Virus record (IMG/VR): IMGVR_UViG_3300013126_000019
Coordinates: 16,689 to 80,688 of that record
DNA length: 64,000 nucleotides
Reading direction: 5' to 3' (one strand)
Origin: a virus
The position numbers and the translations under genes were made by a program. The notes beneath the pieces were generated by a model. That model ran no database searches. It saw nothing but the letters and a program-made list of their open reading frames with translations, and was not told the DNA's origin. Shown one piece after another: positions 2,051 to 62,145 of this stretch; the first letter of the stretch is position 1; every line of letters starts with the position of its first letter.

Positions 2051-5000
2051 TACTTACAGGCTTTAGTTTTTTGGTTAATAATAGTATTTATTTCTGATTG
2101 AGAAGGATTGATATCAGATAAGCTGATAGTTCTTTTTGTACTACTTACCGGTATTACCAGAGAGCTCCCAGCATTAGGATGTATCTTATTAAAGCCATCC
2201 CATTGATTAGTATCGAGAGCGCCATTTTTAGCTTTTGGCTTAGCACTAAAAGATCCCGCATCAAAAGCTCCTAATGTAAGATCTTCTGGTTCAACACTGA
2301 AATCTTTCATAATAGACTCAGCTTCTTTTTTTATACCATTAATACTACCAGTAAACTCTCTTACAATAGTATTACCTTTTTGGTCTTTGAATATAAAAAC
2401 AATACTTGATCCAGAAAATCTACTATACTTGCTTTTGCCATCAGCACCTTTACTAAAAGTAAAACTTTGTGCTTTGACACCTGCTTTAGTTGTTAAGCAA
2501 TAAGAAGCTTTGTACAAAGATTCTTGGGAATCCCAATTAATATCTGCAAATTTCCATTGTAAAAGTTTAGTGACAGCAATGTCATCATTACTAAGCTCTG
2601 ATGCAATTTTGTACTTAAGCTTTACAGTATTTTCACCTTGAGCATTTTGCGGCATGAATTGGAATACAGGTACATAATCTGTTGGTTTAATGTCATAGGT
2701 ACCTATTCTCTTTTTAAATACTTCTCTTGCTTCATTTAACTTTTCAGTAGTAGTATATCTACTAAGGTCACCACCTACATCATCCATGATATAGAAATGT
2801 GCAACACCAACTGTATTATCAAAAGTCATTTGACCCACGCGATCTCTAGTTGAGTTACTTGGTCCGGCAAGGTATTCAAATCCTACATCATTAAACCATT
2901 GATTACGGTACATTAATAAACTATCAGTACCAGAACCTTGACCATCTTTAACAGCACCTAAACTTTGAAAATAAGTATTTTCTTGTATATATGCTAGGCG
3001 GTCTTCATTATCCTTAATTGCTTGAGCGTTTGCAACATCTTCAACAGTCTCTTCTTTAACATTTGATATATCATAAAGACCGTATTTAATAAACCCTCGC
3101 ATTATTGTTTGCTTATAAGCATCAGATACGGGTAACCAGTACATAGTATTATCAATAGCATTGCCAACACTCCATGTTGGTTTTGCCATATCTTCTTCCA
3201 CTGTTGAATTAACACCCATATCAAAACCTGCAACACCTGTATAAAGACCAGAGGCCATACTCATTGCAATAAGAACATTTCTAAGTCTTTTGATAATTCT
3301 TCTTATGATACCATCTTTCTTAGTTTTGGGTGCTTGATCTAAATTTGTTTTAGCTCTTCCAAGAGTAGTACTACTAAAATATCTAGTGACTGCATTTTTA
3401 ATATCTGTAATGATTTCAGTCACAGATTTCTTTTCTTTATCAGCTATCTCTTGAAGTTCTTCAGCTGTAGCCTCTTCTTTTACAAGTTCCTCTATAGGTG
3501 CAGCTAATTGATTTGCTAGATTACCCACAGCATCCTTACCATCAGTATTATTAATAGATTCAGATAATACAGTCATTGGGCTTTTAGAACTGTTAGCCTC
3601 AAATTTATTATACTCATCATCAGCCATACCAAGACCTTCTTGCAGGTCAACAAGTTTTCTAACTTTAGCATCTGTAAAGCCAGTCATATCTTTAGCAAGA
3701 ATCTCAAGATATCTATATGAATCTTCAGATAGCTTGCTCATTAATACTCTAAACTCACGGTTAGTTAAGAAGTAAGCTGCAACTTGGTGTGCAGGATTCT
3801 TATCTAATATATAGTTGAGTTTATCTAAAGTATCTTGGTATGGGTAGCCTTCTGCAATCTTTTGTCCTAGTATAGTTTTGATAGCCTCAATTCTAACTTT
3901 AGCTTTATTATCAAAACGCTCCATTGCAATACCCTTAACTTTGCTATCAATATATTGATGTATAAGTTTATGTAGGGTAATTTCCATAGGACTAGAGTAA
4001 CCAAGTAATACAGAGTCACCAAACTTAGTACCAGCGGTATCTAGGTTTCTAATAGTTTCCGGGCTAATAGCAAAACCGTTAGCAGAGAAAAATTGGGAAA
4101 ATCCATAAGTGTTTAAAAGATCTGTTATAAAATCTGATAACTGATTCAAGCTGTTATCTTCTCTTTCTAGACCTGTTACTGTTATGGATGGTAAAGTATC
4201 AATAGGAGTTATAGCAGACTTTTCTCTTCTCTTTGCTACATTCTGATATGTATTTTTTACAATAGTCCCTAGCTTACGCATAAACTTAAGTACTCTATCT
4301 AATAAAGTCTTAAGCTTTTCACGTACTTTACCTGTTGTATTTTTATGTGCTCGGCGAAGTTTCTCATATGCATTATTCATAGCCGGTACCATTCTACCAT
4401 AGCTTGTTTGCATAGATTCTCTAAGCTTAGTAGAGGCTTCTCTAATATCATTAAGAGTTTGCTTAGCTCTTTCTGTTAGAGGTGCGACCTTACCTTCAGT
4501 AGCTTTACGCTCAATTTCATTAAGCTCATTCTCTACTTCTGTTGTAGCATTATCAACCCCAGACATACCCTCATTAACATCATCTCTAGTTTCAGGATTT
4601 TTATTGATGTCGTCATTTACTTCTTGCTCCTCAGTCTTTTCTGGTTCTGTTTGAGTAGTTGTAGTCGTTGTAGTTGTTGACCCCGCTTTTTTCTTAAGTA
4701 CTGGAAGTTGTATGTTAACTGTATTATTTGCCTGATTCCACATCACACGTGCAGTAGGCATAAGAGCTAATACCTTTTCTTTTATCTTATCAAATTCTTC
4801 TCTAGTTGCAACATTTATTTCAGTATACAAAGCTTCTTTCTCTTCTTGAGTCTTTGCATTTTGAAGACCTTCTTTTGAAGCCTGATTTAAAGTAATACTA
4901 TTTGTAACAGGATTGTCACTTGCATCTGTAAGAATTTCATAACCTCTATCAAGTTGTTGTGAGTAAACGCGAAGACCCTCTAAAGATATATTAGTTGTTT

Positions 5001-8000
5001 CAGTATACTCATGATCAGCAGGAAGTCTAGACTGAACTTCAGACAGCATAGTTTTAAATGCCTCTTTATTAGCGGACTCATTAGACATTTTAGAAGTCCA
5101 TCTGTTTGTTGGCTTTCCGTTTTCATATATCCGCACATACCCTACATAATCATTATTACTTGTTCCTGACATAAGTACATCAACAAGACCTGATGCATCA
5201 CCAGTATACTCAGCTATACCTATACCATTTACTTCTGAGTAGTTAGAAATAGTAGAACCTGCAATACCACCTCCAATAGCTTGTGCAAACTCTGTTGTCT
5301 CAGGGAATAAATCTGTGTTTCTAGTAGCTTGTGTGTCTATAGAAGTACTATCTTGAGTTTCTACAGGCTTGTTATACTTTGCTTCAATCTCATCAATCCT
5401 ATCTTGTACAGGTTGTAAAGCATCTCTTAATGGTTGTAGGTTAGGTGTTGTATCATTTAAGATAGCTGTGATCCAAAAAGGTTTTGGTGATCCGCCTTTA
5501 GCAACGTCCTCTGCTGTAACATTTTGAAATAACACAGCTGTAAGTTTACCACTTGGATCCCTTGCCACATTAAGCTTACCACCATATGTTAAGTTAAAAG
5601 TTTTATTAGCACCAAATGGATAATCTTCTTTAGGACCAAATATTTCTGGCATTGTTAGCTTTTCAGCCTCAGCAATGATTATTGCATCCTGCATTTCAGT
5701 TTGAACAATACTTTCTTTTTGAAGGGTTATAGCTGTATTGACAATATCACCATAAACTTGCATAATCTCATGCTGTCTAGGTGTAAGATCTTGACCGTTT
5801 TCCTTTCTAGTTTTAATATCTGTGAGGATATCATCTGAAACATTATTAGTTTCTCTAAATGTTCTTAGGTCATCATCTGAAATAACCTCTACACCAGCTT
5901 GTACATTTGTACCATTTGCTGCAGTAGAACCAGGTTGTTGAGATTGAGCGTTAGGATTTACTCTTCCTGTTTGACTATTTATATTATTTATAAGGATATT
6001 AGCAACGGGATCTGTTGTAACAAACTTTTTAAAGTCATCTTCAGTTGGAGCAAATGATGGATCTTGCGCTGTCTTTTGTTTAACAATGTCATCATAATAC
6101 ATTTTTAAAGCTTGGGCATATTCGGGGATACCGACTATTTCCTCAAAAGGCATGTCTTGTGTAACCGGTACGCCTGTAGGAGTAGGGTTAGTTGAAGAAC
6201 CTCCAGTAGCTGGAGTACTTCCAGCCATATTTGCATTAGGATCAATATTAAATGCTGTAAGGTCTACAGCTTCATCAAGTAATGTTTGTTTTGTGCTAGG
6301 AGCTAATTTAAAAATCTTGGTAAAAAAATCACTTAAAGCTTTTTTAAATTCTTGCCATAAAGACTTTGGTGCCGCTCTTTCACCAGTATACTCAATTGTT
6401 CTAAGAGTCATCTGAAAATTCAGATTAGTCAAAGCTTCACTAATGAAGTTTTCCACTGAGTCTAAACCCAAAGGCATTTGAGAAAAGTTATTATCTTTAT
6501 CTAATATGTTTTGCTTAGCTATGTTTAATAGGTTTTGAGCTTTTGCTTTAAAAGTATCATTCTTTTCAAACTCTGTACTAACAATACCTTTTAAGATACC
6601 ACTAAGTATAATAGGCTCAGCTTTGAGAATACCACCAGAGTAGTCTATAGATACGTATCTTAAATCTATCAATACACCTGTTGCTTCAGAATAGCTAACA
6701 GGCTGTGAAAGGTTTCTAACAAAGGTTACTCTTGCAGCACTACTTACTAAACTTTTAAGTCTTTTAGCAAGCAGCTTTTCAGCAGGCGTAGCCTGTGGAC
6801 TTCTTGACAAAGCTTCTAATACATCTTCTGTAGATGAATAAGATTCAGTAGTATCCTCAGAAGCACCGTATTGCTTAGATAATGTAGACATGTTTCTGAT
6901 ATCATCTTTTGACCGTTTGACTCTTGTCATAGTATCAAAAGGTTGAAACTCTGGAATTAGTTTACCACTTAGAGTTTTACCAGTTGTCCTTTCAAATTTA
7001 TCTATTTCAGCTAATAGATCTTTATACTTAGGGCTTGTGTGATCAAGCTCTTCCATAGTAGTAGAATCAATAAAAGCTTCTGGTAATACCGAATCATCTT
7101 CAAAAGCCTGAGCATACTTAGGGTCATAGAAAATCCCCTTATGCATTAAATTATTTAAAAATGCATTTAAATCTTTTTTATGCTGTAGTTCATCAAATAT
7201 CTTGGTGTTATTTTCCTTGTGCATTTTATGCACATTCTCTAAGGCTTGTTTAATCCTACCATGATGTGCTTCAAATCCTGCAGGATCATAAAGCATATTT
7301 AATGAATCAATGCTATTAGAAAAATCTGCACCATGATCTATCATCTCTCTTAGTGAATCAAACACATCATCAATATTTTCTGATAATGGTGTTTCACTAA
7401 CTTCAGAAGCCATACTTTTTATAACATCAAAGAAAGCATCTCTTAGATCTGTAGCATGACTTTCAATTTTATCTGTAACAGGGTCTATAGTTTGATCTGT
7501 TTCCCCATCTTTTTTCTTTTGGTACCTATTTCTTACATAATCAGCAGGAGCGTTTTTCTTAGCATCCTCATACAATTCATAAGCTGATAAGTATTTATTT
7601 AACAGCTCTAGTCTATTATCAATCTGTGCAAGTCTAGCTGCAGCCTTATCCGAAGTAGTAGCAGTTTGTTCATAAGCAATACGCTCTTTATTAAGCATAT
7701 CAATCTCAGTCTTGATTCCATTATTAGTTAAAATGCTAGTGAACTGGGTACCTGAAATATTAGAAATAGGTTTTATCTTACCAGCTTTATCAAGTAAATC
7801 TGCAATATACTGTTGAGCAAGTACTGTATTTGTTTTTAAGAAAGCTAAATCAAATTTAACTTCCTCTACTGCTAAATACTTATATGCTTCCTCATTATAT
7901 TTTTCCGGCTCTTTGGTTCTATCAAAGTTAAATGGATTGTAACGGTTTTCTATTTTCTCAGCTTCTTTAAAGCTTTTCTCCATTACATCTACCTTACTAA

Positions 8001-16423: not shown

Positions 16424-19400
16424 TTATTGATTATAAGGATTGTCAAAGTTATAATTATTATCTACATATTCAACCTCTCCTCCATTTTCAATGATTTGTT
16501 TAATCATTTCTGGAGTTAAGGTATACACACCACCCTGCTGCATAGTCATAAATAATTCAGCACCTTTTTGTGCATACTGAGGAATTAAGGGTTGACCATA
16601 CTGAACATTTGCACCAGCAAAAGGAGCTCCTGCAAAGGCATCTGTTGTTCTATCAAAACCTCTTAGTCTTGGACTAAACTGTGTATCTGGTGATGTAAGT
16701 GCTAAGTTATTCTCTAAGAATCTGCTAGCTTTAAATTGTTTATATGCATTATTTCTTTCATCGCTAGAAAACACACCATCTGCTAAATATTTACCGGTTG
16801 CATTAGCAATGTTTAAATATCCTGCTGGAGAAATAGAACTTCTAATTTTACCTTTACCTGACGCTGTTGCTTCTTGCTGAGGTTCTTTACCGGTGTATTT
16901 TGGAACATACTGATCCAGTTGTTTTCCAAATGCATCAGCTGTTAATGGAGCATTACCGTTATCAAAGAAAGTTTGCATCCTATTAGCATCAGGAAACACA
17001 TTAACATCAGGTAATCCTAAGCCTTGCGTTTTCTTATTAGGATTCATATTAATAGGGTTTATTTTCCTATTAAGAGGATTTTGTGTATTCCAGTTAATGC
17101 CTGGATAAGTTTTATTAGGATCTGCACTTGGTAGTGCATATACGCCTACACCAAAATTAGGATCATAGATATCCTTTAATACACCATATCCAGGATACTC
17201 ACCATCTACTTGAAACATTGGTAGCATTGTACCACCATCTTGTTTACGATACTGTTGTATACGCGGTTCCCAAGTATAGCCATAAGCATCTGCTTTTTCT
17301 AAACTATCTAGGTAAGCATCTTTTTCAGCTTGCGACATTGCATTAAACTTTGTTTGATCAAAACCTTTTTTATTAGTTCTACCATAAGCTTTAAGACGCT
17401 CATCTAAATACTTATTAATAAAAGCTTTATTATCTTTACCGTAAGCTTCTGAAAATGCTTTTTGTGTATTAGGATCATTAAACAATGCTGTTAACTGATC
17501 AGCATTATAATTATACCTATCAGCATCGTTAATAATACCTTGAGATAGCATTAAGGTTAATCTTGGATCTATACTTTGATTAAATAGCTGGTCCATTACA
17601 GCAGGTCGAATATCTGCAGGTAAAGCATTAACATCAAATCCTTTAATTTTTGCTCTATTCTGATCTCTACCGGAATAATCAATATTTTTCCAATTGTAAA
17701 ATTGCTCTGGGTGTTGAGTTAAGGGTGTATACTCTAATAACCCTGAACCTAATGGACTACCCTTTGTAATTTCATATTGAGCTATCTGATTAATAAATGG
17801 TAAATTTTCTTTTTCTACAGTATTCCAGTCATAATTAGTATTATAAAAAGGCTGGCTTGCTGATGCCGTATTTACAGGAGGTGGTGCAGTGTTTGTACTT
17901 TGTGTTACTGTAGGATTTGCGCCTGTTGCTGGTGCTGTTACTGGAGTACTTGTTTGTACACCAGTACCCATTAAGTCATAAGGGTTTCTAGGTCTTGTAC
18001 CTATCATACCTGCACTTGCAATTTTTTTAGTATTTGCTTCTTCTTCAGCAATTTGATTATCATATGATGCTCTTGCAGCTTCTGTTTCTTCTCTTACTCT
18101 TTGTTTATCTAAATTCTCAAAATAATCTTTACCAAGACGTCTTAAGTTTTTACGGTTAGGATCTATACCTGCAGACTCAAGAACATCTCTTCTATCTCTC
18201 CTAGAGCGGTTCTCCCAGATATAAGGATTCATCTCATCAGTTTGGAATAAACCTCCGCCGGGCATATCTGCATTTTGAGCTCTGATTGCTCTATTTCTAT
18301 TTGCTTCCATACGGTCAGCATCAAAAATACTTTGACCTTCTGGTAATATAGTTTGATTTATATTATAGTTCCTCGTGTCAAACATTTTACCTATACCAAT
18401 TTTGTCAAGGAATCTACCGGCTGCTGTAGGGTCAGCTTCAAACTCAGTTAAGAATCTATCATATTGACCTTTACTTGTTGCATCCTTATACATCTCCTTA
18501 TAGTTTTGAGAATATTCCATATCAGGAATAGTCATATATCTATAAGGACTTAATCCCATATAAGCGCCAGGACTTGGTCTATCAATTCCAAGATTTGTAT
18601 ATGTTTGTGGGGCAGCGGTCCCAGTAAGTAATTCTGGAGCAAAACCTGGACCAGACACACTTACGTTAGGTAGATTTAAGCCATCTCGGCTTGGGTAATT
18701 ATTTAGGTAAGAGAAATCGGCAGATGGACCAAAAGATGGTGTAGGATTATCGTTATATGCTTTAGCAACAGATTGATAATAAGTATTGTACGCATCTTCC
18801 GTAGCTTGTTGTAATTGCTCTTTAGTCAACAAATTTCCTTGTGCATCATAAACAGGTTGATCTGAATTATAATTACCCAAGGTATTTTGAAGATTAGTTT
18901 CTGCTTCCACAACTTCTCTAGGTTTGTATGCTGATGATGAAGTAGTGTTTGCTGTAGTTCCAAAAGTACTACCTGTAGTACCCATCATCTGAGCTTTAGG
19001 TAAACTGTTAGCAGAACCACCTTTCTTTTGTGTTTGGGGTGTTTGTTGCGTTTGAGTATTATTACCCACACCATATCTGCTAGCATAAACTTGTTTGTTA
19101 TATGCGCTAATAGCAGGATTTAATATTGTGTTAGCCGTTGTATTAAAAAGACCTTTAAGTGAATTTAAACCTACACCCTCGTATTTGTCTGACTCCTTTT
19201 TAAAAACTTCACTATTAGCTGGTGTTAGATCCATTTGTGATGGATACATAAAAGGCCCGGGTAAACTTTCCATACGCGCACCTAACTCCATACCATAGGC
19301 GGCTTTAGGTACACCGCCCATTAGTTGTTGAGCATGCAGTTGTTGTAAATCTTCAAATGGTGGAAGTTGTAAAGCTCTACCCAACATATCCTGAGCAGCT

Positions 19401-30205: not shown

Positions 30206-30739
30206 TTATAATGTCCGTATAATAATTATTGCACTTTCTGAGGTAGCTGTACCGCAGTCAGTTGTAACTTTAAAAAAGTATTGAGTACTAGAATTTAGGT
30301 TGGTTAACGTATAACTAGTTACATTTAATCCTGAAATAGCGGTAGTTGTAGAAGGAGTTGTTCCATAAGATAGTGTATATGACTCAGCTCCGGTATCTTC
30401 CCAATTAATGACAATTGCTGTAGTTCCTACATATGATGGATGTAAGTTTACCACAGCTGTACAATCGGGATCATAGCTATTAAAAGATAATGCCTGAAAT
30501 GCATTTTCTAGTGTAGCTCCTGCAGGCAAACTATAGCCTGTAGTACCGGCAAAAGAACCAAAATTATAAATTTGGTAATCTAGATTATGTTTTACACAAG
30601 TATCCTGGATAGTTTCATAACACGGTGTTGGATCCGGGCAAACTGTATCAGGAGGGCAGGTGTATGTAGGCATGGTTGTAAGAGGTAAATCCTTACAACC
30701 ACACTTATTATTTGTACAATTACATGTTTTACAAGCCAT
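30206..30739 (-). CDS. Cys-rich structural protein with C-terminal fibronectin type III domain
   Basis: W...Y.LSY...YTLTNL.SSTQY.FKV FN3 signature; Cys-rich N-terminus. Confidence 0.65.
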   Translation of the reverse strand: MACKTCNCTNNKCGCKDLPLTTMPTYTCPPDTVCPDPTPCYETIQDTCVKHNLDYQIYNFGSFAGTTGYSLPAGATLENAFQALSFNSYDPDCTAVVNLHPSYVGTTAIVINWEDTGAESYTLSYGTTPSTTTAISGLNVTSYTLTNLNSSTQYFFKVTTDCGTATSESAIIIIRTL

Positions 30740-30744
30740 TTTTA

Positions 30745-32211
30745 TTAAGGTTTAGTAGTTACTGATGAATAAGGGCAATCTTTAATTACAGAGCCAATAA
30801 TAACTCTCACTCTAACCTGATATGTAACAGCTGCTGTAAGTCCTGTTAGGGTTCCAATTACGGCTCCTGCTGCAGGATTTATAATTGTTTGACCGGTAAC
30901 TATTGTTGTTAAAGCATTATTCCAACACTCAATAACATATGTTACAGGACTACTTATAAGATTAGTAAGTGAAAAATCAATTTCAGTTACATCGGCAGCA
31001 TATACAATTGCTGGACAATATGCAGAATTTGTAACACTTGTTGTAAGTACTTGATTACATTTTAATTTGTTAGTAGGATCATCAGTACAAACATTAAGTG
31101 ATACAGTGTAGTCCGTGTAAGGGTTTAAGGATGTAGCACCAATATTTATTGATACAGCTGCTCCGCCAACATTTGATACTACAGGAACTGAAGTTACATA
31201 TGTATTACCGTATGTATCTGTAATTGTAACAGCAGATCCACCTGAATAGCAATCTGTAAAAGTTCCACCAATTGTTCCTCCAATTGTAAGTAAAATATTT
31301 GGTGATGAATATGTTGCCGTAATAAATAAGTTTACATCATCGCATGATGGAGCGCAGCAGGTAGTTACTACATTATAAAGCGCCGAGCGCATGTCACAAA
31401 TTGTAATCCACATATTATTAAGTGAATCTGCAACAGTATTGTAATTACCTGCAGTAATCCATCCGGGTAAACTACCCATATTAACTGAAGTATTAGTTAA
31501 GGATGGAGATGTATCTAAATTTACACACTCTTGCGCAATAGCTGAATATAATTCTGTGGTAGTTCCTGTTGCTGTTTGTAATTCACAAAAAGCTGTTTCA
31601 AGATCTTCTACAAATGTTGCAATAGGAATATCTGTACTAGCCGATAAGCAACTAGTAGGAACTGTAATTGGTGGGATAACTGGATTACAGGCATCACAGT
31701 CTTCAAATACTTGAATACGTGCATCTAAGTCATCTAACCTTGCATTAACTACAACCAATTCTGCAACAATCTCACAAACTTTAGTAGCAATTGCCGTTGC
31801 ATAATCTTCAATAGATAATTGGGTTATAAGGTCACCGTATTGATTAGTTTTTTGAAAACAAGGCACAATAGATACCATGCAGTTTAAACTGTCTGTACAG
31901 TTAAATGTAGAACTTTTTCCGCCTGTACCCTGAGACTGTTGACACAGCTGATCTATAATAAACTGAATAAGATCGTGAATGTTTTCAGGCTTAGGACAAA
32001 TAGGAGGAAAGCATGATACATCAAATCCAGTAATATCTAACTGATCTACTAATGTACAAAGCTCTGTTGCTACTTTATAAGTAACATCAGAAATGCTGTC
32101 CCCTTTGCATAATGTAATGCATGGAATATCTGGCCCCTGCCAGATTACGCAGTTACTTGAAACAGGATTACATCCTGCTTGTGTATCTGAGGGTTGAATA
32201 GGAAGTGCCAT
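30745..32211 (-). CDS. Cys-rich structural/fibre-associated protein with FN3-like C-terminus
   Basis: SSNCVIWQGPDI.C N-terminus; LTGLTAAVTYQVRV FN3-like end. Confidence 0.6.
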   Translation of the reverse strand: MALPIQPSDTQAGCNPVSSNCVIWQGPDIPCITLCKGDSISDVTYKVATELCTLVDQLDITGFDVSCFPPICPKPENIHDLIQFIIDQLCQQSQGTGGKSSTFNCTDSLNCMVSIVPCFQKTNQYGDLITQLSIEDYATAIATKVCEIVAELVVVNARLDDLDARIQVFEDCDACNPVIPPITVPTSCLSASTDIPIATFVEDLETAFCELQTATGTTTELYSAIAQECVNLDTSPSLTNTSVNMGSLPGWITAGNYNTVADSLNNMWITICDMRSALYNVVTTCCAPSCDDVNLFITATYSSPNILLTIGGTIGGTFTDCYSGGSAVTITDTYGNTYVTSVPVVSNVGGAAVSINIGATSLNPYTDYTVSLNVCTDDPTNKLKCNQVLTTSVTNSAYCPAIVYAADVTEIDFSLTNLISSPVTYVIECWNNALTTIVTGQTIINPAAGAVIGTLTGLTAAVTYQVRVRVIIGSVIKDCPYSSVTTKP

Positions 32212-32239
32212 ATCTTTAATTTACAAAAATTTATTCTAT

Positions 32240-33748
32240 TTAACTAGGTTCTGGACAAATAACTGGTGGTGTCGGTGTAACAATTGTGCATGCCGTAGGA
32301 TCATTTATAACAGCTAAATCAGATAGTTGTTTCTTAATCCAAATACTATCTAAGTTTACAGTATTACACTCTGAGTTAATACCATATTTAAGATTCTTAA
32401 ACAGTCTATAATAAGCTTCAGCAAACTTTATGTTTGATGAAATATCACACTGACTTTGTGTAACTTGATAAAAGTGTCTATCCGGTTTAGGTATTACTCT
32501 AGTATATTTAGCTGGTGCAGGAGGTGCAGGAGGTAAGCAGCATGTACAGTCATCAAAAATTAATGGGTAACCTCCTGTGTTATTTGCAATTTCAACGTCT
32601 ACAAGAGTTTGGTCATCAAAGGCAATAATGTTAACACTCCAACATAAAGGTGATCCTACAATATTTATAACTCTACTTACACCTGAACTTAAGATTGGAC
32701 TAGTAGAATATATTGGATTTGCTTGACCTGTGCAGTCATATAATGCATATATATCAGAATCTTTAACCAAAGTCCATACTGCCGTAGCAATATTTCCTGA
32801 TGCATAGTAGTCATTACTTACAGTTGCTGTAATTGTTGTACTAGCATTTTCTGCTTTAAATACAGCACCTATTGCATTACCTCCATCATCAATAGCAAAA
32901 AAGCCATCTGTTGGTGTATAAAAGTGGGCTGCCCAAATACTTCTAATATCTGATCCCGGATCTAGCGGTGGGTATACTTCTGACCAAGTTGCACCTGCAT
33001 CAGAAGAGTATAGTATTGGTCCATTAGATCCAGACACCCACATTGTATTATCGTCATACCATGTTAGGTGCGTGTACTTTAGTGGTGTACCAGCATAGTC
33101 ACCGTCTGCAGCAATAATATCATAAACACTTGTAAATGTTGTGCCACTATCAGTACTTCTAAATATATCATTACTAGTTACAGCAACAATTACGGATTCA
33201 TCAGCTGAGATGTGTACACCTGATACATAGTCAGCGCTAATCTCTAATCCTCCGTTCAGGTATGTCCAGTTTGCTCCACCATCAATAGTTTTTGCAATAG
33301 CTTTGCTGTGACCAATAACACCTATAAGATTATCTTTAAAATGAACTGAGAAAGCAGTATTCCCATATTGTACTCCATCTAGACCATTGATGCACAATGT
33401 ATATGTAATTCCGCCATCAGTAGATTTAAGCACAGCCACTTGTTTACCAGAACCTGTCCCGCATATGTATATAGTTTGGGATACAGTTGTTGGTATAGAT
33501 ATCTGAAGGGCTCTTGTAACCTGAGTAGGGTTTACAGCAATTGATTGTACTGTTGCGCCAGCATCCGTTGTATAACCAATGTAATTGCTGCCACATACAA
33601 TAGCATAATTAGGATTACTATGATCTGTTTTTACATCATATAAATCCTGGGTAGTAAAACCAGTATAGTCAGTCCAAACAGTTGTTGTATGATCATAGAC
33701 CTTAAAAAGACCGTTCTTACCTGATAAGTATGTTTTACCGATTGCCAT
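32240..33748 (-). CDS. BNR/Asp-box beta-propeller structural protein (possible receptor/glycan binding)
   Basis: Repeated S/T-x-D-G/A/S-G-x-T/N-W/Y/F boxes: TTDAGAT, STDGGIT, TIDGGANW, STDSGTTF, SSDAGATW. Confidence 0.7.
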   Translation of the reverse strand: MAIGKTYLSGKNGLFKVYDHTTTVWTDYTGFTTQDLYDVKTDHSNPNYAIVCGSNYIGYTTDAGATVQSIAVNPTQVTRALQISIPTTVSQTIYICGTGSGKQVAVLKSTDGGITYTLCINGLDGVQYGNTAFSVHFKDNLIGVIGHSKAIAKTIDGGANWTYLNGGLEISADYVSGVHISADESVIVAVTSNDIFRSTDSGTTFTSVYDIIAADGDYAGTPLKYTHLTWYDDNTMWVSGSNGPILYSSDAGATWSEVYPPLDPGSDIRSIWAAHFYTPTDGFFAIDDGGNAIGAVFKAENASTTITATVSNDYYASGNIATAVWTLVKDSDIYALYDCTGQANPIYSTSPILSSGVSRVINIVGSPLCWSVNIIAFDDQTLVDVEIANNTGGYPLIFDDCTCCLPPAPPAPAKYTRVIPKPDRHFYQVTQSQCDISSNIKFAEAYYRLFKNLKYGINSECNTVNLDSIWIKKQLSDLAVINDPTACTIVTPTPPVICPEPS

Positions 33749-33757
33749 TACTAATTT

Positions 33758-33892
33758 TTATTTTTTAGGTTCAGCTTGTTGCTGTTGTTTTAATGTATTA
33801 ATGCATTTACTACATGCTTGTTTACCATTTGGTGTTACTCTTTTTTGGCAACCACATGTTAGTGTTGCTCCACAGTTTGCACATTTACTCAT
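33758..33892 (-). CDS. 44-aa Cys-rich (Zn-binding-like) protein
   Basis: Not in the ORF track. MSKCANCGATLTCGCQKRVTPNGKQACSKC... fills the gap and is preceded by the AAAAACCAACAATT leader. Confidence 0.7.
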   Translation of the reverse strand: MSKCANCGATLTCGCQKRVTPNGKQACSKCINTLKQQQQAEPKK

Positions 33893-33914
33893 AATTGTTG
33901 GTTTTTATTACTAT

Positions 33915-34469
33915 TTAACATGATTCACATCCACAGCCACATGCTAATTTTGTAAGCTTAGCTGTAACGTAGTTATATATATCCATGCCGTGTTGTGGTG
34001 TGTGACAATATTCTACTTTAGCTTTAGCAGCTTGAAGCATTGTTGATAATAGTTGTAACTCTTTAAGCTTATCTTTCATAGGAGGAAGAGGCTCACAGTT
34101 AGGCACATCTAAACAACAAAGGATATTATTAATTTTATTTAGCGCTTGAGTAATACGTAAATGGTTATATTCTACGTATACAGTATCATTAGGGGCAACA
34201 CTATACCTAACTACATATATTCCATCAGGTAATGCATTTCGAGTAGTACTACAGTTAGTTAACTGTAAATCTAAATCGCATGCAGTATAATTAGCAGAAA
34301 AATCTGTACCTGGTTGTAACTCTACAGAAGTAGTAAAACCGGGAGCCGTTATCTGTAATTTTGGACAGTCCAAAGGTACTGCATCATTGTAAGTACTAGT
34401 ATCAATAATTCTAAAGATACATGTTGTAAGTACATCTGGAATTTCTATTGAAAGTGCGTGTTGTGCCAT
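33915..34469 (-). CDS. structural protein (184 aa)
   Basis: LPDGIY.V.YSV motif; Cys-rich C-terminus CGCGCESC. Confidence 0.55.
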   Translation of the reverse strand: MAQHALSIEIPDVLTTCIFRIIDTSTYNDAVPLDCPKLQITAPGFTTSVELQPGTDFSANYTACDLDLQLTNCSTTRNALPDGIYVVRYSVAPNDTVYVEYNHLRITQALNKINNILCCLDVPNCEPLPPMKDKLKELQLLSTMLQAAKAKVEYCHTPQHGMDIYNYVTAKLTKLACGCGCESC

Positions 34470-56755: not shown

Positions 56756-57079
56756 ATGAACACAACTCGACCAATCTTATCCTGCGCGGGTAGAAAAGCA
56801 GTGTCTATTGACTCTGCTCTATTACAGGAACTCTTATTGAGTTTCAAACCTAACACCATTGGAATCAGAGAAAGGGCAAACCGATTAGGAAACTCCTTAT
56901 TTGCATTAGACTCTGGTGAATATGGTGATAAAAGCCTTGAAGCATTCAAGGAAATAATCACAACTGAGTTCTTATCTATCCAACTGATGGAGGCAAGCAA
57001 ACTTGCGAGACAGGGATCTGCGGATGCTGTTGCTGATGCACCATCAACGGATGATAGCGAGTACCATCTTGGTGCGTAA
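56756..57079 (+). CDS. early hypothetical protein (about 107 aa; start reassigned to MNTTRP)
   Basis: The track start at 56585 lies inside the terminator; an AT-rich leader precedes ATG 56756. Confidence 0.65.
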   Translation: MNTTRPILSCAGRKAVSIDSALLQELLLSFKPNTIGIRERANRLGNSLFALDSGEYGDKSLEAFKEIITTEFLSIQLMEASKLARQGSADAVADAPSTDDSEYHLGA

Positions 57080-57089
57080 CTCATTAACT

Positions 57090-57122
57090 ACAGGGTATCC
57101 CAATTGGGGTACTCTGTTTTTT
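57090..57122 (+). terminator. intrinsic terminator
   Basis: ACAGGGTATCCC-AATT-GGGGTACTCTGT followed by a T run. Confidence 0.8.
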
Positions 57123-57428
57123 ACTATAACCTCTCTCCAATAAACCAATATACTACTATGGTTGGAAAGCTAACTGAGTCTTGTATGTGGGATGGAGACA
57201 GACTAATATGCTGTAAATGAGTGTGTTAGTATTTTACCATTCTTGGAATCCTATGAGAGACACAAGGAGAGGGAAGGGCATGGAAATGCTTGTATGCGCG
57301 CTTCGCGCGCTTCTTTTCCCCCCGCGCGCTTTACGCAAACTCACTTTATTCAAGGTATTGCGCTTCGCGTGAGTGTTAACTCATATGCGTGATTACCAAC
57401 AAGTTAGGATATTATATAGATACATACA

Positions 57429-57992
57429 ATGTTAAAAGCAATTTACATTGGTAGTGGCGAGAAGGGAGTTTCTCGTAATTACAAGGTTACCGGTCCTACA
57501 ACCGAGTTAGTAGCATTTAAAGCTTGGAACTTAAGCCAAATTGGTAAAGATGGATTACCTATCTTACGCAAGTTCCCAGATGTACTTACTGTACCAAGCA
57601 AGCTTTATAATGAAGCCGGTGAGATTATTGGTGACAAGCCTTTATTCTTTACAGGTATTGTGCAAGCAAGACAATTGTTAGCGGGTGAGCGTATAGGCCA
57701 AACGGTCTATGAGTTAATTCCAAATGCCTATGAATCAGCTATTAAGGCTGTTATGGAGAGCGATGGAATTGAGGTTACCACAACATTGGTTAACTTGGGA
57801 GTTATTAATAAGGCAGAATTAGACTCTGCAACTTATGGGATGGCTCACGAGTTACCTTCAGGTACTGCAGTTCCCACTGTTGCAACGCCTACTTTGTCAA
57901 ATAACATTGATTTATCAATGCCAGAGACACCAGCTGATGAATCTAAGCCTGAAACCAAAGGTTCAGAGAAAAAAGACTACACAAAGTCTTGA
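57429..57992 (+). CDS. early hypothetical protein (187 aa)
   Basis: Follows the fourth repeat copy; disordered acidic tail like the 227-aa protein. Confidence 0.75.
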   Translation: MLKAIYIGSGEKGVSRNYKVTGPTTELVAFKAWNLSQIGKDGLPILRKFPDVLTVPSKLYNEAGEIIGDKPLFFTGIVQARQLLAGERIGQTVYELIPNAYESAIKAVMESDGIEVTTTLVNLGVINKAELDSATYGMAHELPSGTAVPTVATPTLSNNIDLSMPETPADESKPETKGSEKKDYTKS

Positions 57993-58641
57993 TAATCAAG
58001 TAGTTAAGAGTGAGTATGTGAGTGTTAAAAACCCACTGCTCACTCTCTAACTATCTGATTACCAGCACAAAAAGTACAAAAAGTTGAACATTATATGGCT
58101 AGCTATGATACGCACTATTAACTTTATTGGTAAACTCTATTCTCACATTGTCTCTATGTATTACTCTCTTAGAGATAGATACTACTATGTTAGATTTCAC
58201 ATAGTCAGGCTCCGGGGCGGAGTTTGCTACGGTTACTTCTCTGTTAGTGATGACCCCGATAATGTCATTGCTCTATAAGTGATACCTTTCACTAGTTTAA
58301 TCCTAGTCTAACTTTCACAGGTAAAACTTGTACTGATATACAGGTAATCCTATACTAGGTAGGTTCTTGGTTCCGTGGGTTAATCACCACGTTAAACAGC
58401 AGGATTATATGATACACTAATGTTTTTTTAAATCAAGTTGGAAAACAGAAGGTGATGCCTATAATCTAATAGGCTATGTGTATTTACCCAAAGGTCAGTC
58501 TATGGGATATTACTGAAGTAATAGTTACACGGATGATTGGTATAAGGACTTGACAAGTCTATCCAAAGGTAGTTTGAAATTACAGGTGTATGTCAAAACA
58601 CCACTAACAAAACAGTTGTATTGTATTACAGTACAACTGTT

Positions 58642-58834
58642 TGTATTAATGCACCATAACTTACTTCACAAGGGTAAGCAGTTGTAACAAACCTTCTTGA
58701 TAAACCTGAATAATTACAGGTCAAGGTAATGCTATGCTTGTCATAGATATACACAACGGACTCTATGAGTCTAAACTAGGTTAGGAAGTGATTCCTTATA
58801 ACCAATGTGTTACAACTGAGTGCAGAGTGGTACA
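58642..58834 (+). ncRNA. twister-ribozyme-like element 1 (type P1 variant with extended P5)
   Basis: P1 TGTAT/GTACA; TAA; P2 TGCAC/GTGCA; P4 CTTACT/GGTAAG; L4 TCACAAG; T1 TCAC:GTGG; GAG; P5 CAGTTGTAACA/TGTTACAACTG. Confidence 0.7.
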
Positions 58835-58888
58835 TAGTGTGCAAGAGACCGATTTTTGATTAAGTTTATCGGTCAGTGTTTAACTTAG

Positions 58889-58928
58889 AAACCGTGGGTG
58901 TTTAGCCGTGCCCACGGTTTTACTTTTT
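58889..58928 (+). terminator. intrinsic terminator-like hairpin
   Basis: AAACCGTGGG...CCCACGGTTT-TACTTTTT. Confidence 0.6.
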
Positions 58929-58977
58929 ACGGTTAGCTATATTGATGAGTAAACAAAAACAACTAATAATAACAACT

Positions 58978-59178
58978 ATGGCAGAAATTAAAGAAATCAC
59001 TATGTGCAAAATAACTCTTATTGAAGACATCAATAAAGTGCACAAGCTTAGTACAGGTACTAACATTAACGTAAATACATTTGATACTCTATATGATATG
59101 AATGTAGAGAGATTAGAGATACATTTGCAAATGGTAGTCTTTAAATACGAACTTATGAAACTTGTTAATGAAATGTAA
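58978..59178 (+). CDS. small protein, paralog of 62956..63192
   Basis: KITLIEDINK.H.L....FD.LYDM..E.LE..LQ is shared; A-rich leader before ATG 58978. Confidence 0.7.
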   Translation: MAEIKEITMCKITLIEDINKVHKLSTGTNINVNTFDTLYDMNVERLEIHLQMVVFKYELMKLVNEM

Positions 59179-59277
59179 CTTAACAACTAATAAGAAATAA
59201 AATACTCCGAGGGTGCAGTAATCGTCAACCACAGTAAATATGTGAGTTTGGGTTACTGTACCTACGAGTATACTATA

Positions 59278-59351
59278 TTGTAAAGTAAAGAATGTTAACT
59301 GCACTATAAACTAAATGGTATGTTACACAAACACATTCTGTATCTTTACAA
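59278..59351 (+). ncRNA. TROVE-associated hairpin RNA, unit A
   Basis: Outer stem TTGTAAAG/CTTTACAA; AGAATGT/ACATTCT-G; CTGCACTATA. Confidence 0.65.
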
Positions 59352-59356
59352 CCTTA

Positions 59357-59443
59357 TATTCTTACTCTTAAAGGAATAGTCTCAGCACTATAACTCTACC
59401 ATCTAAATAGGTTAAACAGTCCCTATTCTGCAGAGTAAGAATA
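59357..59443 (+). ncRNA. TROVE-associated hairpin RNA, unit B
   Basis: Outer stem TATTCTTACTCT/AGAGTAAGAATA; GGAATAG/CTATTCT-G; CAGCACTATA. Confidence 0.65.
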
Positions 59444-59448
59444 CAAAT

Positions 59449-59574
59449 TGTTATAATATTAGCTAGTACAACGGACAAGGCTCAGGGTCAAGGTGATTTA
59501 CCGTCAAGGTAACATTCTACCGTTAAATAGACATGGGTAGCGCGTGGTTGACCAGCTAGCTAATTATTGTAACA
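59449..59574 (+). ncRNA. multi-stem structured RNA between units B and C
   Basis: Closing stems TGTTATAATA/TATTGTAACA and TTAGCTAG/CTAGCTAA; inner GGTCAA/TTGACC and TTACC/GGTAA. Confidence 0.5.
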
Positions 59575-59578
59575 TTAA

Positions 59579-59689
59579 GCACATCAAAGAATGAAACAGC
59601 GCTATATATATAACTATAACGCAAAACCCAGAGATTGGTAGGCCACAGCAGTTAACTGCAAGGCTCTCTCGTCATTCTGTAGTATGTGC
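59579..59689 (+). ncRNA. TROVE-associated hairpin RNA, unit C
   Basis: Outer stem GCACAT/ATGTGC; AGAATGA/TCATTCT-G; CAGCGCTATA. Confidence 0.6.
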
Positions 59690-59756
59690 AAAGCCGGGTA
59701 GTGATACTCGTGGCCTGCCAAACTCAAAATTGTTTAACCTTAAATTCCTTAAAGCA

Positions 59757-61154
59757 ATGGATAACTTTACCAATGCAATGTTTTCTAATGACAGTCTTAC
59801 TAATAACGGTGCTATTACACATAGTACTGCAGGTAATTACTGTCTTGACCTGTTCTTTTTAGCAGGTGCGAGCCGTGAAATGTCTAATGAAGATATCTTA
59901 AAAGCATTTATTAGAGCTTATCATGAAGATAAGTCAATAGCTCTTAAGATTCTATTTTGGGCACGTGATGCACGTGGTGGTGCTGGTGAGAAGAGATTCT
60001 TCCAGGTTATTATGCGATCTTTATTAGCCAATGAACCAGAGGTATATGAGCAGTTAGCTATATATATCCCAACTTTTGGCTATTGGAAGGATATTTTTGT
60101 TATTGAGACACCTACCGAGAACACCCTTAATTGGTTATCTATTCAGTTAGATGAAAACCCTAATGCTAATCTATTAGCTAAGTGGTTCCCAAGAAGAGGA
60201 CCTTGGTTTGTAGCAATGCATAAGTATTTGGGTGTTAGCCCTAAAGCTTTCCGTAATCGCTTAGTTACTATGTCTAATACCGTAGAGCAGAAGATGTGTG
60301 CTAATGAATGGGAAACTATTCAGTATAGCCAGGTACCTTCTGTTGCAGGTAAGACATATAGTAGAGCATTTAACATGCACGATGGTGTAAGATACGCCTC
60401 TTATATCAGTGATGTTATGGAAGGTAAGCAGAAGATGAATGCTTCAGTACTATTTCCTAGTGATCTTGTACATAAAGTATTTGCGGGTGAGTCTGATACA
60501 AGTGCATATGATGCAATGTGGAAGTCTCTACCTAACTTTATGCAAGATTGTACAGAGCGTATATTACCGGTATGTGATGTATCAGGTAGTATGGCAGGTA
60601 CACCTATGGAAGTATCTATAGGACTAGGTATGTATATCTCAGAACGTAACGAGGGTCCTTTTAAGGATTTAGTGTTAACGTTTAGTAATGAACCCGAGTT
60701 TCACATGATAGAGGGTAATACTTTTACTGAAAGAGTAAATAACCTACATCAAGCAAACTGGGCTATGAATACTAATCTTTATTTAACATTTAAAGTATTA
60801 CTGAGACGTGCTGTTGCAGGTAAAGTATTACAAGAAGAGATGCCTACTAAGATCCTGATTATCAGTGATATGGAATTTGATAGGGCTTGTGGTAATCATA
60901 CAAACTTTGATGAAATCAAGGATATGTATGCACAAGCAGGTTATCAAATGCCGGGCTTAGTCTTCTGGAATGTTAACGGTAGACTTGGTAATTCACCAGT
61001 TAAAGCTGATACACCAAACACTGCACTTGTTAGTGGGTTTAGTCCCAGTATCATCAAGTCTGTATTAGGTGGTGATGACTTGAGTCCGGTAGCTGTGATG
61101 CTGAAGACTATTAATACAGAAAGATATGAATGCATTAAAGTAGATTCTCTATGA
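59757..61154 (+). CDS. Ro60/TROVE-like RNA-binding protein with VWA (MIDAS) domain, DUF2828-type
   Basis: T.NGA..H.T, LDLFF, RDARGGAGE, GYWKD, AKWFPR, MIDAS DVSGSM, SDMEFD, FWNV and VSGFS motifs; ATG at 59757. Confidence 0.85.
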   Translation: MDNFTNAMFSNDSLTNNGAITHSTAGNYCLDLFFLAGASREMSNEDILKAFIRAYHEDKSIALKILFWARDARGGAGEKRFFQVIMRSLLANEPEVYEQLAIYIPTFGYWKDIFVIETPTENTLNWLSIQLDENPNANLLAKWFPRRGPWFVAMHKYLGVSPKAFRNRLVTMSNTVEQKMCANEWETIQYSQVPSVAGKTYSRAFNMHDGVRYASYISDVMEGKQKMNASVLFPSDLVHKVFAGESDTSAYDAMWKSLPNFMQDCTERILPVCDVSGSMAGTPMEVSIGLGMYISERNEGPFKDLVLTFSNEPEFHMIEGNTFTERVNNLHQANWAMNTNLYLTFKVLLRRAVAGKVLQEEMPTKILIISDMEFDRACGNHTNFDEIKDMYAQAGYQMPGLVFWNVNGRLGNSPVKADTPNTALVSGFSPSIIKSVLGGDDLSPVAVMLKTINTERYECIKVDSL

Positions 61155-61423
61155 AAGCATTATTTATAATTCTGTATTATGTTATAGGACTTACGGCAGT
61201 TACAATAATTGCAGTAGGTTGTGATCATAAACAACCTGAAGCTGCAACTAAGTACCCTTATCTTATTAGAGATGGTAGAGATTATGGTACTATGATATAC
61301 TGCGATAAAGCTACATCATTAAGCGCTAGCAGAGTACAATACATTAGGGGTAGTGATACCCTTATTGTTGAGTCTGATAGGTACCTGTACATCCAAACTA
61401 ACTCATACTATATCCCTAAATAG
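61151..61423 (+). CDS. lipoprotein
   Basis: MK, hydrophobic stretch, then IAVG-C lipobox; ATGA-coupled to the TROVE gene. Confidence 0.7.
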   Translation: MKALFIILYYVIGLTAVTIIAVGCDHKQPEAATKYPYLIRDGRDYGTMIYCDKATSLSASRVQYIRGSDTLIVESDRYLYIQTNSYYIPK

Positions 61424-61450
61424 GTTAATATAATATGAATTTATAATCTT

Positions 61451-61484
61451 AAATAGAGTGTATCAATGACATACACTCTATTTT
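61451..61484 (+). terminator. terminator-like hairpin
   Basis: AAATAGAGTGTAT...ATACACTCTATTTT. Confidence 0.5.
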
Positions 61485-61564
61485 CCTATACTCTATGTTA
61501 CCGGGAAATCGGTTAAGGGACAACGGTCCCGGGTTAAGAATTAGTCACTACTCGGTGACATAGA

Positions 61565-61810
61565 GTTACTAATGTGCCACAACCCTAGTGTATGAAGACT
61601 TCTTAGTGACAGCCATTAAACCATTAAGATGTGAAACCACAATAATTAACTTGAGCTAACCATAAAGACAGGGCTATGCGTGACTCAGTTCACCCTGTTA
61701 GTTAATCATTTTCCCAAGTTAGGGCAGTTGTAGCAGTACGTGAAAGCACGTAAATTATGGACGCTGTAGCCCAGCAAACCAGCTACTACAACTGAGCACA
61801 GAGGGGTAAC
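61565..61810 (+). ncRNA. twister-ribozyme-like element 2 (with an insertion of about 120 nt in L4)
   Basis: P1 GTTAC/GTAAC; TAA; P2 TGTGC/GCACA; P4 CCCTAG/TTAGGG; TCCCAAG; T1 TCCC:GGGG; P5 CAGTTGTAG/CTACAACTG. Confidence 0.6.
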
Positions 61811-61914
61811 AAGCATAGCATAAGTGCTGATGAAACGATGCAAGTATGGGATACTTACTATCTCACATGTAGACTGAAAGGTCTACTCTTTAAGTAATCT
61901 AATCACACAACATC

Positions 61915-62145
61915 ATGGCTCCAGAAGAAAAGGGAAAAGAAATTCAAGCGGAGATTACAAGGATAATCAGAGAAAGAGGTACGCTAAGTAGAAAGCTACA
62001 AGCAGATGGACATCCTAACCCAAAAAATGAAGCTAGTAGGCTAATCAATCTCAAGTATGGAAAAGGTTGGAAAGAAAAGCTAGAACTGCAAGATCCCACT
62101 AGAGAGTATGGGAAAAATCTGTTAAAAGTGTCTTATTACTATTAA
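61915..62145 (+). CDS. hypothetical protein
   Basis: 76 aa; TAATCACACAA leader shared with the next gene. Confidence 0.65.
   Translation: MAPEEKGKEIQAEITRIIRERGTLSRKLQADGHPNPKNEASRLINLKYGKGWKEKLELQDPTREYGKNLLKVSYYY

Follow-up and report, generated by a model that had tools for sequence, protein, structure and literature searches.

A Ro60-like gene preceded by three handle RNA units

The stretch of DNA studied here, referred to as the window, is 64 kb long and covers positions 16,689 to 80,688 of the IMG/VR virus record IMGVR_UViG_3300013126_000019, which measures 80.7 kb and is estimated to be 67% complete. Its plus strand carries, at 59757-61154, a gene for a Ro60-like protein of 465 aa that consists of a DUF2828 helical region and a vWA domain (DUF7788). 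Between a strong terminator-like hairpin (58888-58921), upstream of an array of putative small RNAs, and the ATG at 59757, five structured elements are present on the plus strand. Three of them, units 1 to 3, share a motif that will be called the handle. A first-pass annotation of the sequence had proposed three units of one architecture at this place, and the outer stem, the inner stem and the box were located in each of them where it had put them.

Unit 1 (59278-59351) and unit 2 (59357-59443) are short handle RNAs. In unit 1 an outer stem of 8 bp (59278-85/59344-51) surrounds an inner stem (59289-95/59333-39), which is followed by the box CTGCAC (59299-304) on the 5' side and by a G (59340) on the 3' side. 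Unit 2 has an outer stem of 12 bp (59357-68/59432-43), an inner stem at 59373-79/59423-29 and the box CAGCAC at 59383-88. Unit 3 (59579-59720), which is proximal to the gene, is a long RNA with a 3' tail; its core, the handle alone, extends from 59579 to 59689 and comprises an outer stem of 6 bp (59579-84/59684-89), an inner stem (59588-94/59672-78) and the box CAGCGC (59597-602). Common to the three units are thus the outer stem (8, 12 and 6 bp), the sequence (U/C)AA(A) at its 5' side, a 7-bp inner stem, 2-3 nt and the box C(U/A)GC(A/G)C; on the 3' side the variable interior gives way to the returning strand AUUCU, then to G(U/C) and finally to the second strand of the outer stem. Compared with their own shuffled sequences, the units folded with z-scores of -2.6 (unit 1), -3.6 (unit 2) and -2.5 (unit 3), and the 12-bp outer stem of unit 2 was reached by none of 300 shuffles. 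Such long outer stems are a trait of the window's clade and not of the whole handle family described below. Two other readings of the units were discarded. The interior hairpins of units 1 and 2 have no 7-nt loops of the U33/R37 pattern that display of an anticodon loop would show, and the handle is not a K-turn, as G-A is missing after the 3-nt spacer.

The encoded protein is predicted to adopt the Ro60 fold

At E <= 0.1 the only Pfam matches of the 465-aa protein were DUF7788 (5e-52) and DUF2828 (2e-31); Pfam TROVE (PF05731) gave no match at this threshold. In PHROGs the protein was assigned to phrog_850, 'RNA-binding protein'. A sequence search for solved relatives returned none, no solved Ro60 chain being found. 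An AlphaFold model based on 25 homologues (predicted local distance difference test, pLDDT, 86; predicted template modelling score, pTM, 0.86) was compared with known structures, and the top Foldseek matches (E 4e-9 to 2e-5) consisted only of Ro60, Rsr and the phiLo Ro60 of a Thermus phage. VIA-align superimposed residues 9-442 of the model on residues 12-536 of Xenopus Ro60 (1yvp_A) over both domains, with a Z of 21.5 and a root-mean-square deviation of 4.0 A for 405 of the 465 residues. Thermus phage Ro60 followed with Z 13.8-14.6 and Rsr with 13.4, structures that match the vWA domain only reached at most 10.8, and all ten entries with a Z above 12 were Ro60, Rsr or Thermus phage Ro60. The MIDAS (metal ion-dependent adhesion site; D274, S276, S278, T339 and D371, DxSxS...T...D) is intact and invariant in the 25 homologues, its DVSGSM being readable in the sequence. 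According to the model the protein has the Ro60 fold, yet by sequence it stands outside Pfam TROVE. The earlier designation 'TROVE-VWA gene' is therefore borne out by the predicted fold, though Pfam gives only DUF2828 and DUF7788. By tblastn the protein family was detected in 710 phage records.

The handle is a conserved RNA motif with covarying stems

In the closest viral contigs (L003-L012, 73-80% protein identity) orthologues of the window's units are present. At 49-60% protein identity (L013-L015, L033 and L043) the same box occurs with different stems, such as GGAUAC/GUAUCC, GGGAUGC/GCAUCCC and AGGCUAC/GUAGCCU. When 21 short units were analysed with RNAalifold, only the 7-bp stem was predicted, and compensatory changes were found at five of its seven pairs, in agreement with the earlier claim that conserved boxes are combined with covarying stems. 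Among 47 model-aligned units all seven pairs showed compensatory changes and 97.6% of the cells were paired, in an alignment that was fitted to the model. The 43 seed units contain 34 distinct stems around a near-invariant CAGCA, in which C, G and C are present in 43/43 units and the two A in 41 and 42. Their consensus reads A, 7 bp, WWA, CAGCA(A/C), ..., an A-rich run, 7 bp and G, and the window's three units fit the definition of this CAGCA-handle family, that is, the consensus on the strand of the DUF2828 gene.

Three covariance models were used: R1, for which the window's clade and its relatives L013-L015 and L033 were used; R2, based exclusively on distant phages; and the pooled model R3. 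With filters off, R3 gave unit 1 38.8 bits, unit 2 28.0 bits and unit 3, which is in no seed alignment, 25.9 bits in the interval 57000-62000, where the runner-up scored 12.3 bits. In the whole 80.7-kb record unit 1 had an E of 1.5e-5 and unit 2 of 3e-3; the R1 values were 7e-10 and 3e-7, respectively. One extra weak match to the handle model (22.7 bits, E 0.04) is situated outside the window on the minus strand at positions 6052-6108 of the record, far from the gene, and is probably due to chance. Rfam 15 holds no such family: a search of the window at E <= 10 yielded nothing relevant, and 18 related loci gave tRNAs only at gathering scores. A description of the handle RNA family was not found in the searchable literature either.

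Occurrence of the handle in phages with and without the gene

The handle was found in all 15 other gene-bearing phage genomes tested and in none of seven gene-less ones, so the handle RNAs are probably the partner RNAs of the protein. A lack of co-occurrence with homologous genes had been named beforehand as a possible ground for abandoning the proposal; instead, the motif accompanies these genes across unrelated phage groups, namely FelixO1, Listeria P100-like, Staphylococcus, Bacillus, Campylobacter, Enterococcus, Ralstonia and Synechococcus phages and a mycobacteriophage. In every group except that of Fusobacterium phage Fnu1 the significant matches are on the strand of the gene.

With R1, matches beside the gene, all on the plus strand, were obtained in clades L016-L032, L040 and L044; in the clades found with this model at 41-46% protein identity, the units are mostly situated just downstream of the gene. 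Among named phages R1 detected units in FelixO1 (E 8e-6, between tRNA genes) and Listeria phage cka17 (3e-5), and also in Campylobacter CP8, Enterococcus VRE9_3 and Staphylococcus 6ec. With a simple pattern scan further units came to light: six belong to Bacillus phage Thrax2, three to the G+C-rich mycobacteriophage OhShagHennessy and two to Ralstonia RSP15. When five complete genomes were scanned with R3, every match with E < 1e-3 clustered at the gene and none was found elsewhere. Seven gene-bearing genomes outside the model (KVP40, Aeh1, Synechococcus B23, Fusobacterium Fnu1, Staphylococcus PG-2021_41, Erwinia pEa_SNUABM_12 and Enterococcus TJE1) all had matches at E <= 0.03 with R3, and in B23, PG-2021_41 and TJE1 the units adjoin the gene. 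In the seven large gene-less phages (T4, T5, RB69, K, SPO1, S-PM2 and Bxz1) the best R3 match had an E of 0.47 or worse. In Bxz1 canonical Ro and YrlA are present, and the handle is absent. The tRNA clusters of T4 (70908-71171; rnaC and rnaD) and T5 (30284-33949; RNAI, RNAIII and others) contain stable RNAs that have long been known, without an assigned function. With the handle model the best match in either genome, inclusive of these RNAs, was no better than E 0.5; the gene is absent from both phages.

Relation of the handle RNAs to Y RNAs

Per phage there is a tendency to have several short units together with one or two long ones. In the long unit of FelixO1, Thrax2, OhShagHennessy, RSP15 and L016 a T-arm, a closed acceptor-like hairpin and a D-arm follow each other in that order, the T-arm being GGUUCRANYCC on a covarying 5-bp stem. 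This order is the permuted tRNA-like layout of YrlA. Since the handle encloses a YrlA-type tRNA-like module in five lineages, the handle family is tied to the bacterial Y RNAs; these modules are the strongest argument for regarding the handle RNAs as Y-RNA counterparts. Compared with Rfam YrlA, the long unit of OhShagHennessy matched the full model with 39.8 bits (E 2.5e-5, gathering score 69), the lower stems not fitting. The handle box occupies the position of the GNCGAA motif of YrlA, which has been linked to Rsr binding (Chen et al., PMC4201824).

The window's own units have the terminal 5'-3' stem around a variable module, near a Ro-like gene and on its strand, that characterizes Y RNAs. 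The classical Ro box was reported as absent by the first-pass annotation, and this proved correct. Near the 5' end of the units neither GGUCCGA with a bulged helix nor GNCGAAN0-1G occurs, WWA-CAGCA being there instead, and Y_RNA and YrlA (RF00019, RF02553) had no match in the window, not even when 631 nt of it were searched at E <= 10. A tRNA-like module in the window was considered and rejected: a T-arm-like motif was not found on either strand of the 64 kb, and a tRNA gene search of the same sequence returned none.

Ro60 is a ring of RNA surveillance that binds Y RNA at its outer surface and takes the ends of misfolded RNAs into its cavity. The known system of Ro60/Rsr and Y RNAs (YrlA/YrlB, RF02553; PMC4201824) resembles the locus in several respects. 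In both, a helical-repeat ring protein is combined with a vWA domain that bears a MIDAS, several same-strand small RNAs are encoded within about 2 kb, a terminal stem carries a short motif just after its 5' strand, and the module is variable, the YrlA-type permuted tRNA-like domain being found in five of the handle lineages. On the other hand, the window protein is 10-16% identical to Ro60 and has no Pfam TROVE match; the handle box is CAGCA and not GNCGAA or GGUCCGA, and the window's units are without the tRNA-like module. A canonical phage Ro60, that of Thermus phage phiLo (PDB 9KOP, 9L5Y), binds two genome-adjacent Y-like RNAs and host polynucleotide phosphorylase (PNPase; PMC12135203). It shares with the window a phage protein of the Ro60 fold and upstream small RNAs (Yrl1 and Yrl2), and it is among the closest structural matches. 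However, phiLo has a canonical TROVE protein and RNAs with a CGAA motif, whereas the window has another protein clade and another handle, whose binding is putative. The Ro60/Y-RNA principle is thus already known, also in phages. What is new is the definition of an RNA family by a handle of its own, the connection of this family to the large DUF2828 clade, and the non-tRNA module of the window's clade.

Probable partner RNAs of a phage Ro60-like protein

Taken together, the three units are probably small non-coding counterparts of Y RNAs for a phage clade of Ro60-like proteins (DUF2828/DUF7788, phrog_850), a reading in which we have reasonable confidence. The first-pass annotation had regarded them as cognate RNAs of a divergent Ro-like protein, and the Ro60-like fold, the co-occurrence with the handle, the absence of the handle without the gene and the YrlA-type modules in other lineages speak in favour of this. 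We infer that the units are transcribed and processed in this phage, that the protein binds them and that they have a biological role. Among public RNA runs, none was listed for positions 58600-61200 of the window.

A number of observations weigh against this reading. In KVP40 and Aeh1 the units lie in tRNA clusters 7 to 10.5 kb from the gene, in the Erwinia jumbo phage pEa_SNUABM_12 they are 200 kb away from it, presumably inside a tRNA cluster, and in Fnu1 they are on the strand opposite the gene; adjacency to the gene is therefore not universal. The pattern scan that delivered the units of Thrax2, OhShagHennessy, 6ec and RSP15 demanded a perfect stem and the 3' G, so that the pairing in these units is partly there by construction. 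Bas63 gp130 is most likely the FelixO1-type orthologue, and gp130 and CKA15_055 (of FelixO1-like and P100-like phages) probably belong to the same family as the window protein. Expressed by itself from a plasmid or from T7, Ro60-like gp130, which is encoded directly upstream of the Felixounavirus tRNAs, is able to counteract the ppl defence (PMC11482910). This implies that at least one function needs no phage RNA. Finally, R2 ranks unit 1 first in the 64-kb window, but with an E of 0.17 only, which is too weak to stand alone.

This weak R2 score, the A+T-rich region and the shortness of the box are what could be put forward if the units were a chance likeness of A+T-rich hairpins, or DNA-level repeats without RNA function. 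Such an origin is highly improbable, as the motif is strand specific, the stems covary around an invariant box, the seven control genomes are clean and the handle recurs in phages whose hosts are Gram-positive, Gram-negative or actinobacterial, a G+C-rich mycobacteriophage among them.

The activity of gp130 alone (PMC11482910) could also be understood if the handle RNAs were part of the phage tRNA module and independent of the Ro-like protein, for example serving tRNA-targeting nucleases of the host or tRNA enzymes as decoys or substrates, their linkage to the gene being due only to a common accessory region. The interleaving of units with tRNA genes in FelixO1, Thrax2, KVP40, Aeh1, RSP15 and CP8, and the mimicry of tRNA by the long units, agree with such a role. 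It is nevertheless quite unlikely, because the 64 kb of the window contain neither a tRNA gene nor a T-arm-like motif although three units adjoin the gene, and because the tRNA-rich gene-less phages (T4, T5, RB69, S-PM2, K, SPO1 and Bxz1) are devoid of the handle.

Long-range pairing in unit 3

Unit 3 differs from the other units by its 3' tail, which ends 36 nt before the ATG. All helices described here are on the plus strand. The interior of the unit contains the hairpins P3 (59599-606/59615-22) and P5 (59648-51/59656-59), and it pairs with the tail through the long-range helix A (59637-46/59710-19) and through helix B (59662-65/59692-95). Between helices A and B two hairpins are present, one per strand, that of the tail being P6 with a GNRA loop (59695-59710). 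Because the interior-tail helix crosses the handle, it must represent either a pseudoknot or an alternative fold. The duplex of interior and tail has a free energy of -43.3 kcal/mol in the window (z -5.8), and in 13 of 13 lineages it is far more stable than that of shuffled sequences (-34 to -48 kcal/mol, z -3.7 to -7.2). It is kept despite completely different sequences between the clades. The long units of other phages are without it.

The position of unit 3 in the 5' leader and this preservation of the interior-tail pairing in all 13 lineages are what would be expected if the units were cis-acting parts of one transcript, either as processing or stability signals (RNase III, RNase E) or, in the case of unit 3, as a leader operator for the protein's own translation. 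Likewise, both the long outer stems, which pair perfectly over 12-14 bp, and the closing 19-bp stem of the element at 59449-59574 look like RNase III substrates. As an account of the units in general this is improbable. The units are downstream of the gene in L016-L032, FelixO1, 6ec, OhShagHennessy and B23, and they are kilobases off in tRNA clusters in KVP40, Aeh1 and pEa_SNUABM_12; hence a leader operator fails as their explanation. For unit 3 alone an autoregulatory or processing role is a fair rival, and autoregulation by unit 3 could exist alongside trans-acting RNAs.

Possible function and published leads

If the units are indeed the partner RNAs of the Ro60-like protein, the ring protein would bind the handle, that is, a 7-bp helix of free sequence with a 5' A and a 3' G and with WWA-CAGCA straight after the 5' strand. 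In that case the variable interior would serve to gate the ring or would link it with a further factor, for instance a 3'-5' exonuclease of the host or a defence protein, and the particle may act on RNA metabolism or counter-defence early in infection. A bolder version, which we consider unlikely, holds that the variable interiors are exchangeable adaptors, each of which would direct the Ro-like ring to a host target of its own, be it a tRNA-directed defence nuclease, PNPase or a different exonuclease, or certain host RNAs. If this were true, the phage would possess a small set of RNA adaptors that is able to evolve and is used in counter-defence, of which the tRNA-like modules would be one option and the pseudoknotted 3' domain of the window another, so far undescribed one.

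Two published studies touch on relatives of the system. CKA15_055 is present in virions, and the authors of that study suspected that upstream regions with high transcription include Y RNAs; in Listeria phage CKA15 these unannotated regions are near tRNA genes, upstream of the Rsr-like gene (PMC12282133). In both this study and that of gp130 (PMC11482910) the likeness to Ro60 was noted and nearby Y RNAs were guessed, whereas neither defined an RNA motif; PhageMaP suspected the annotated tRNAs. In cka17, the sister of CKA15, a TTGACA-17-TATCAT promoter is located about 20 nt upstream of the stem of the first of three units, and judged from its sequence the handle units are likely expressed in this relative. 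As coordinates are published for a single CKA15 region only, a correspondence of the handle units to the 'highly transcribed regions' is putative. As a separate observation, cka17 contains at 2470-3021 (locus L048), downstream of a TTGACA-17-TATAGT promoter, a ROOL RNA (RF03087; 90.1 bits, E 1e-17, just under the gathering score). By its position this corresponds to 'CKA15_059-061', which accounts for up to 67% of the phage reads and was not recognised as ROOL (PMC12282133). The most transcribed region of CKA15 corresponds to the ROOL RNA in cka17 and not to the handle units.

The family has members in workhorse and therapeutic phages (FelixO1-like, P100/A511-like, KVP40-like, Campylobacter and Enterococcus phages and mycobacteriophages). 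One probable member is reported to defeat the bacterial defence ppl, and another was found inside virions. From a sequence-structure model of the putative partner RNAs it can be predicted which of the intergenic 'spacers' in the tRNA arrays of phages may be functional RNAs, and which nucleotides to mutate. In this way Ro60/Y-RNA biology would gain a second phage clade, far larger than the first, that has a recognition motif of its own.

Other features of the locus and of related loci

The two remaining structured elements of the array lack the handle motif. One, with a 19-bp closing stem (59449-59574, plus strand; shuffle z -3.2), is situated between units 2 and 3 and has no homologue in the fetched loci. 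The other is a stable hairpin at the head of the array (59202-59272, plus strand; shuffle z -4.9) with one homologue, in L006. Both may be further RNAs or RNase III sites. The relatives L003, L004/L011, L005 and L012 have other cassettes closed by long stems at the places of these two elements.

Between the terminator and the RNA array an open reading frame (ORF) of 66 codons (58978-59178, plus strand) is present. As a ribosome-binding site is not apparent and PHROGs gave no match, it may be non-coding; for the Ro60-like gene a ribosome-binding site is likewise not visible. The ten ORFs that neighbour this gene had no Pfam match and one marginal PHROG match of unknown function, and RtcB and the RNA-ligase family gave no matches in the 80.7-kb record, 67% complete by estimate.

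In L033 a hammerhead core (CUGAUGAG...CGAAAC, 2566-2651) is found just upstream of the handle units; its match to the Rfam RAGATH-1 hammerhead (35.5 bits, E 0.013) did not reach the gathering score. Cutting of the array may be assisted by such self-cleaving RNAs. In L013, L014 and L033 the stretch at about 4270-4430, which follows closely on the 3' end of the Ro-like gene, matched the 3' end of the alpha-proteobacterial transfer-messenger RNA model (up to 35.9 bits, E 3e-7, again under the gathering score), and it may be a tRNA-like piece of acceptor and T-arm.

Further upstream, at 58640-58830 on the plus strand, the window contains a conserved two-part element with the 5' half AATGCACC..CACAAGGG..CAGTTGTAAC, an insert of about 110 nt and the 3' half GTTACAACTGAGTGCAGAGTGG. 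Its layout is reminiscent of a twister ribozyme, but this identification was dropped as there was no Rfam match. Copies of the element occur in L004, L010, L012, L013 (two), L014 (two) and L033. The loop CCC that faces a 3' GGG in L013 is replaced in the window by CAC with GTG, which is a compensatory change.

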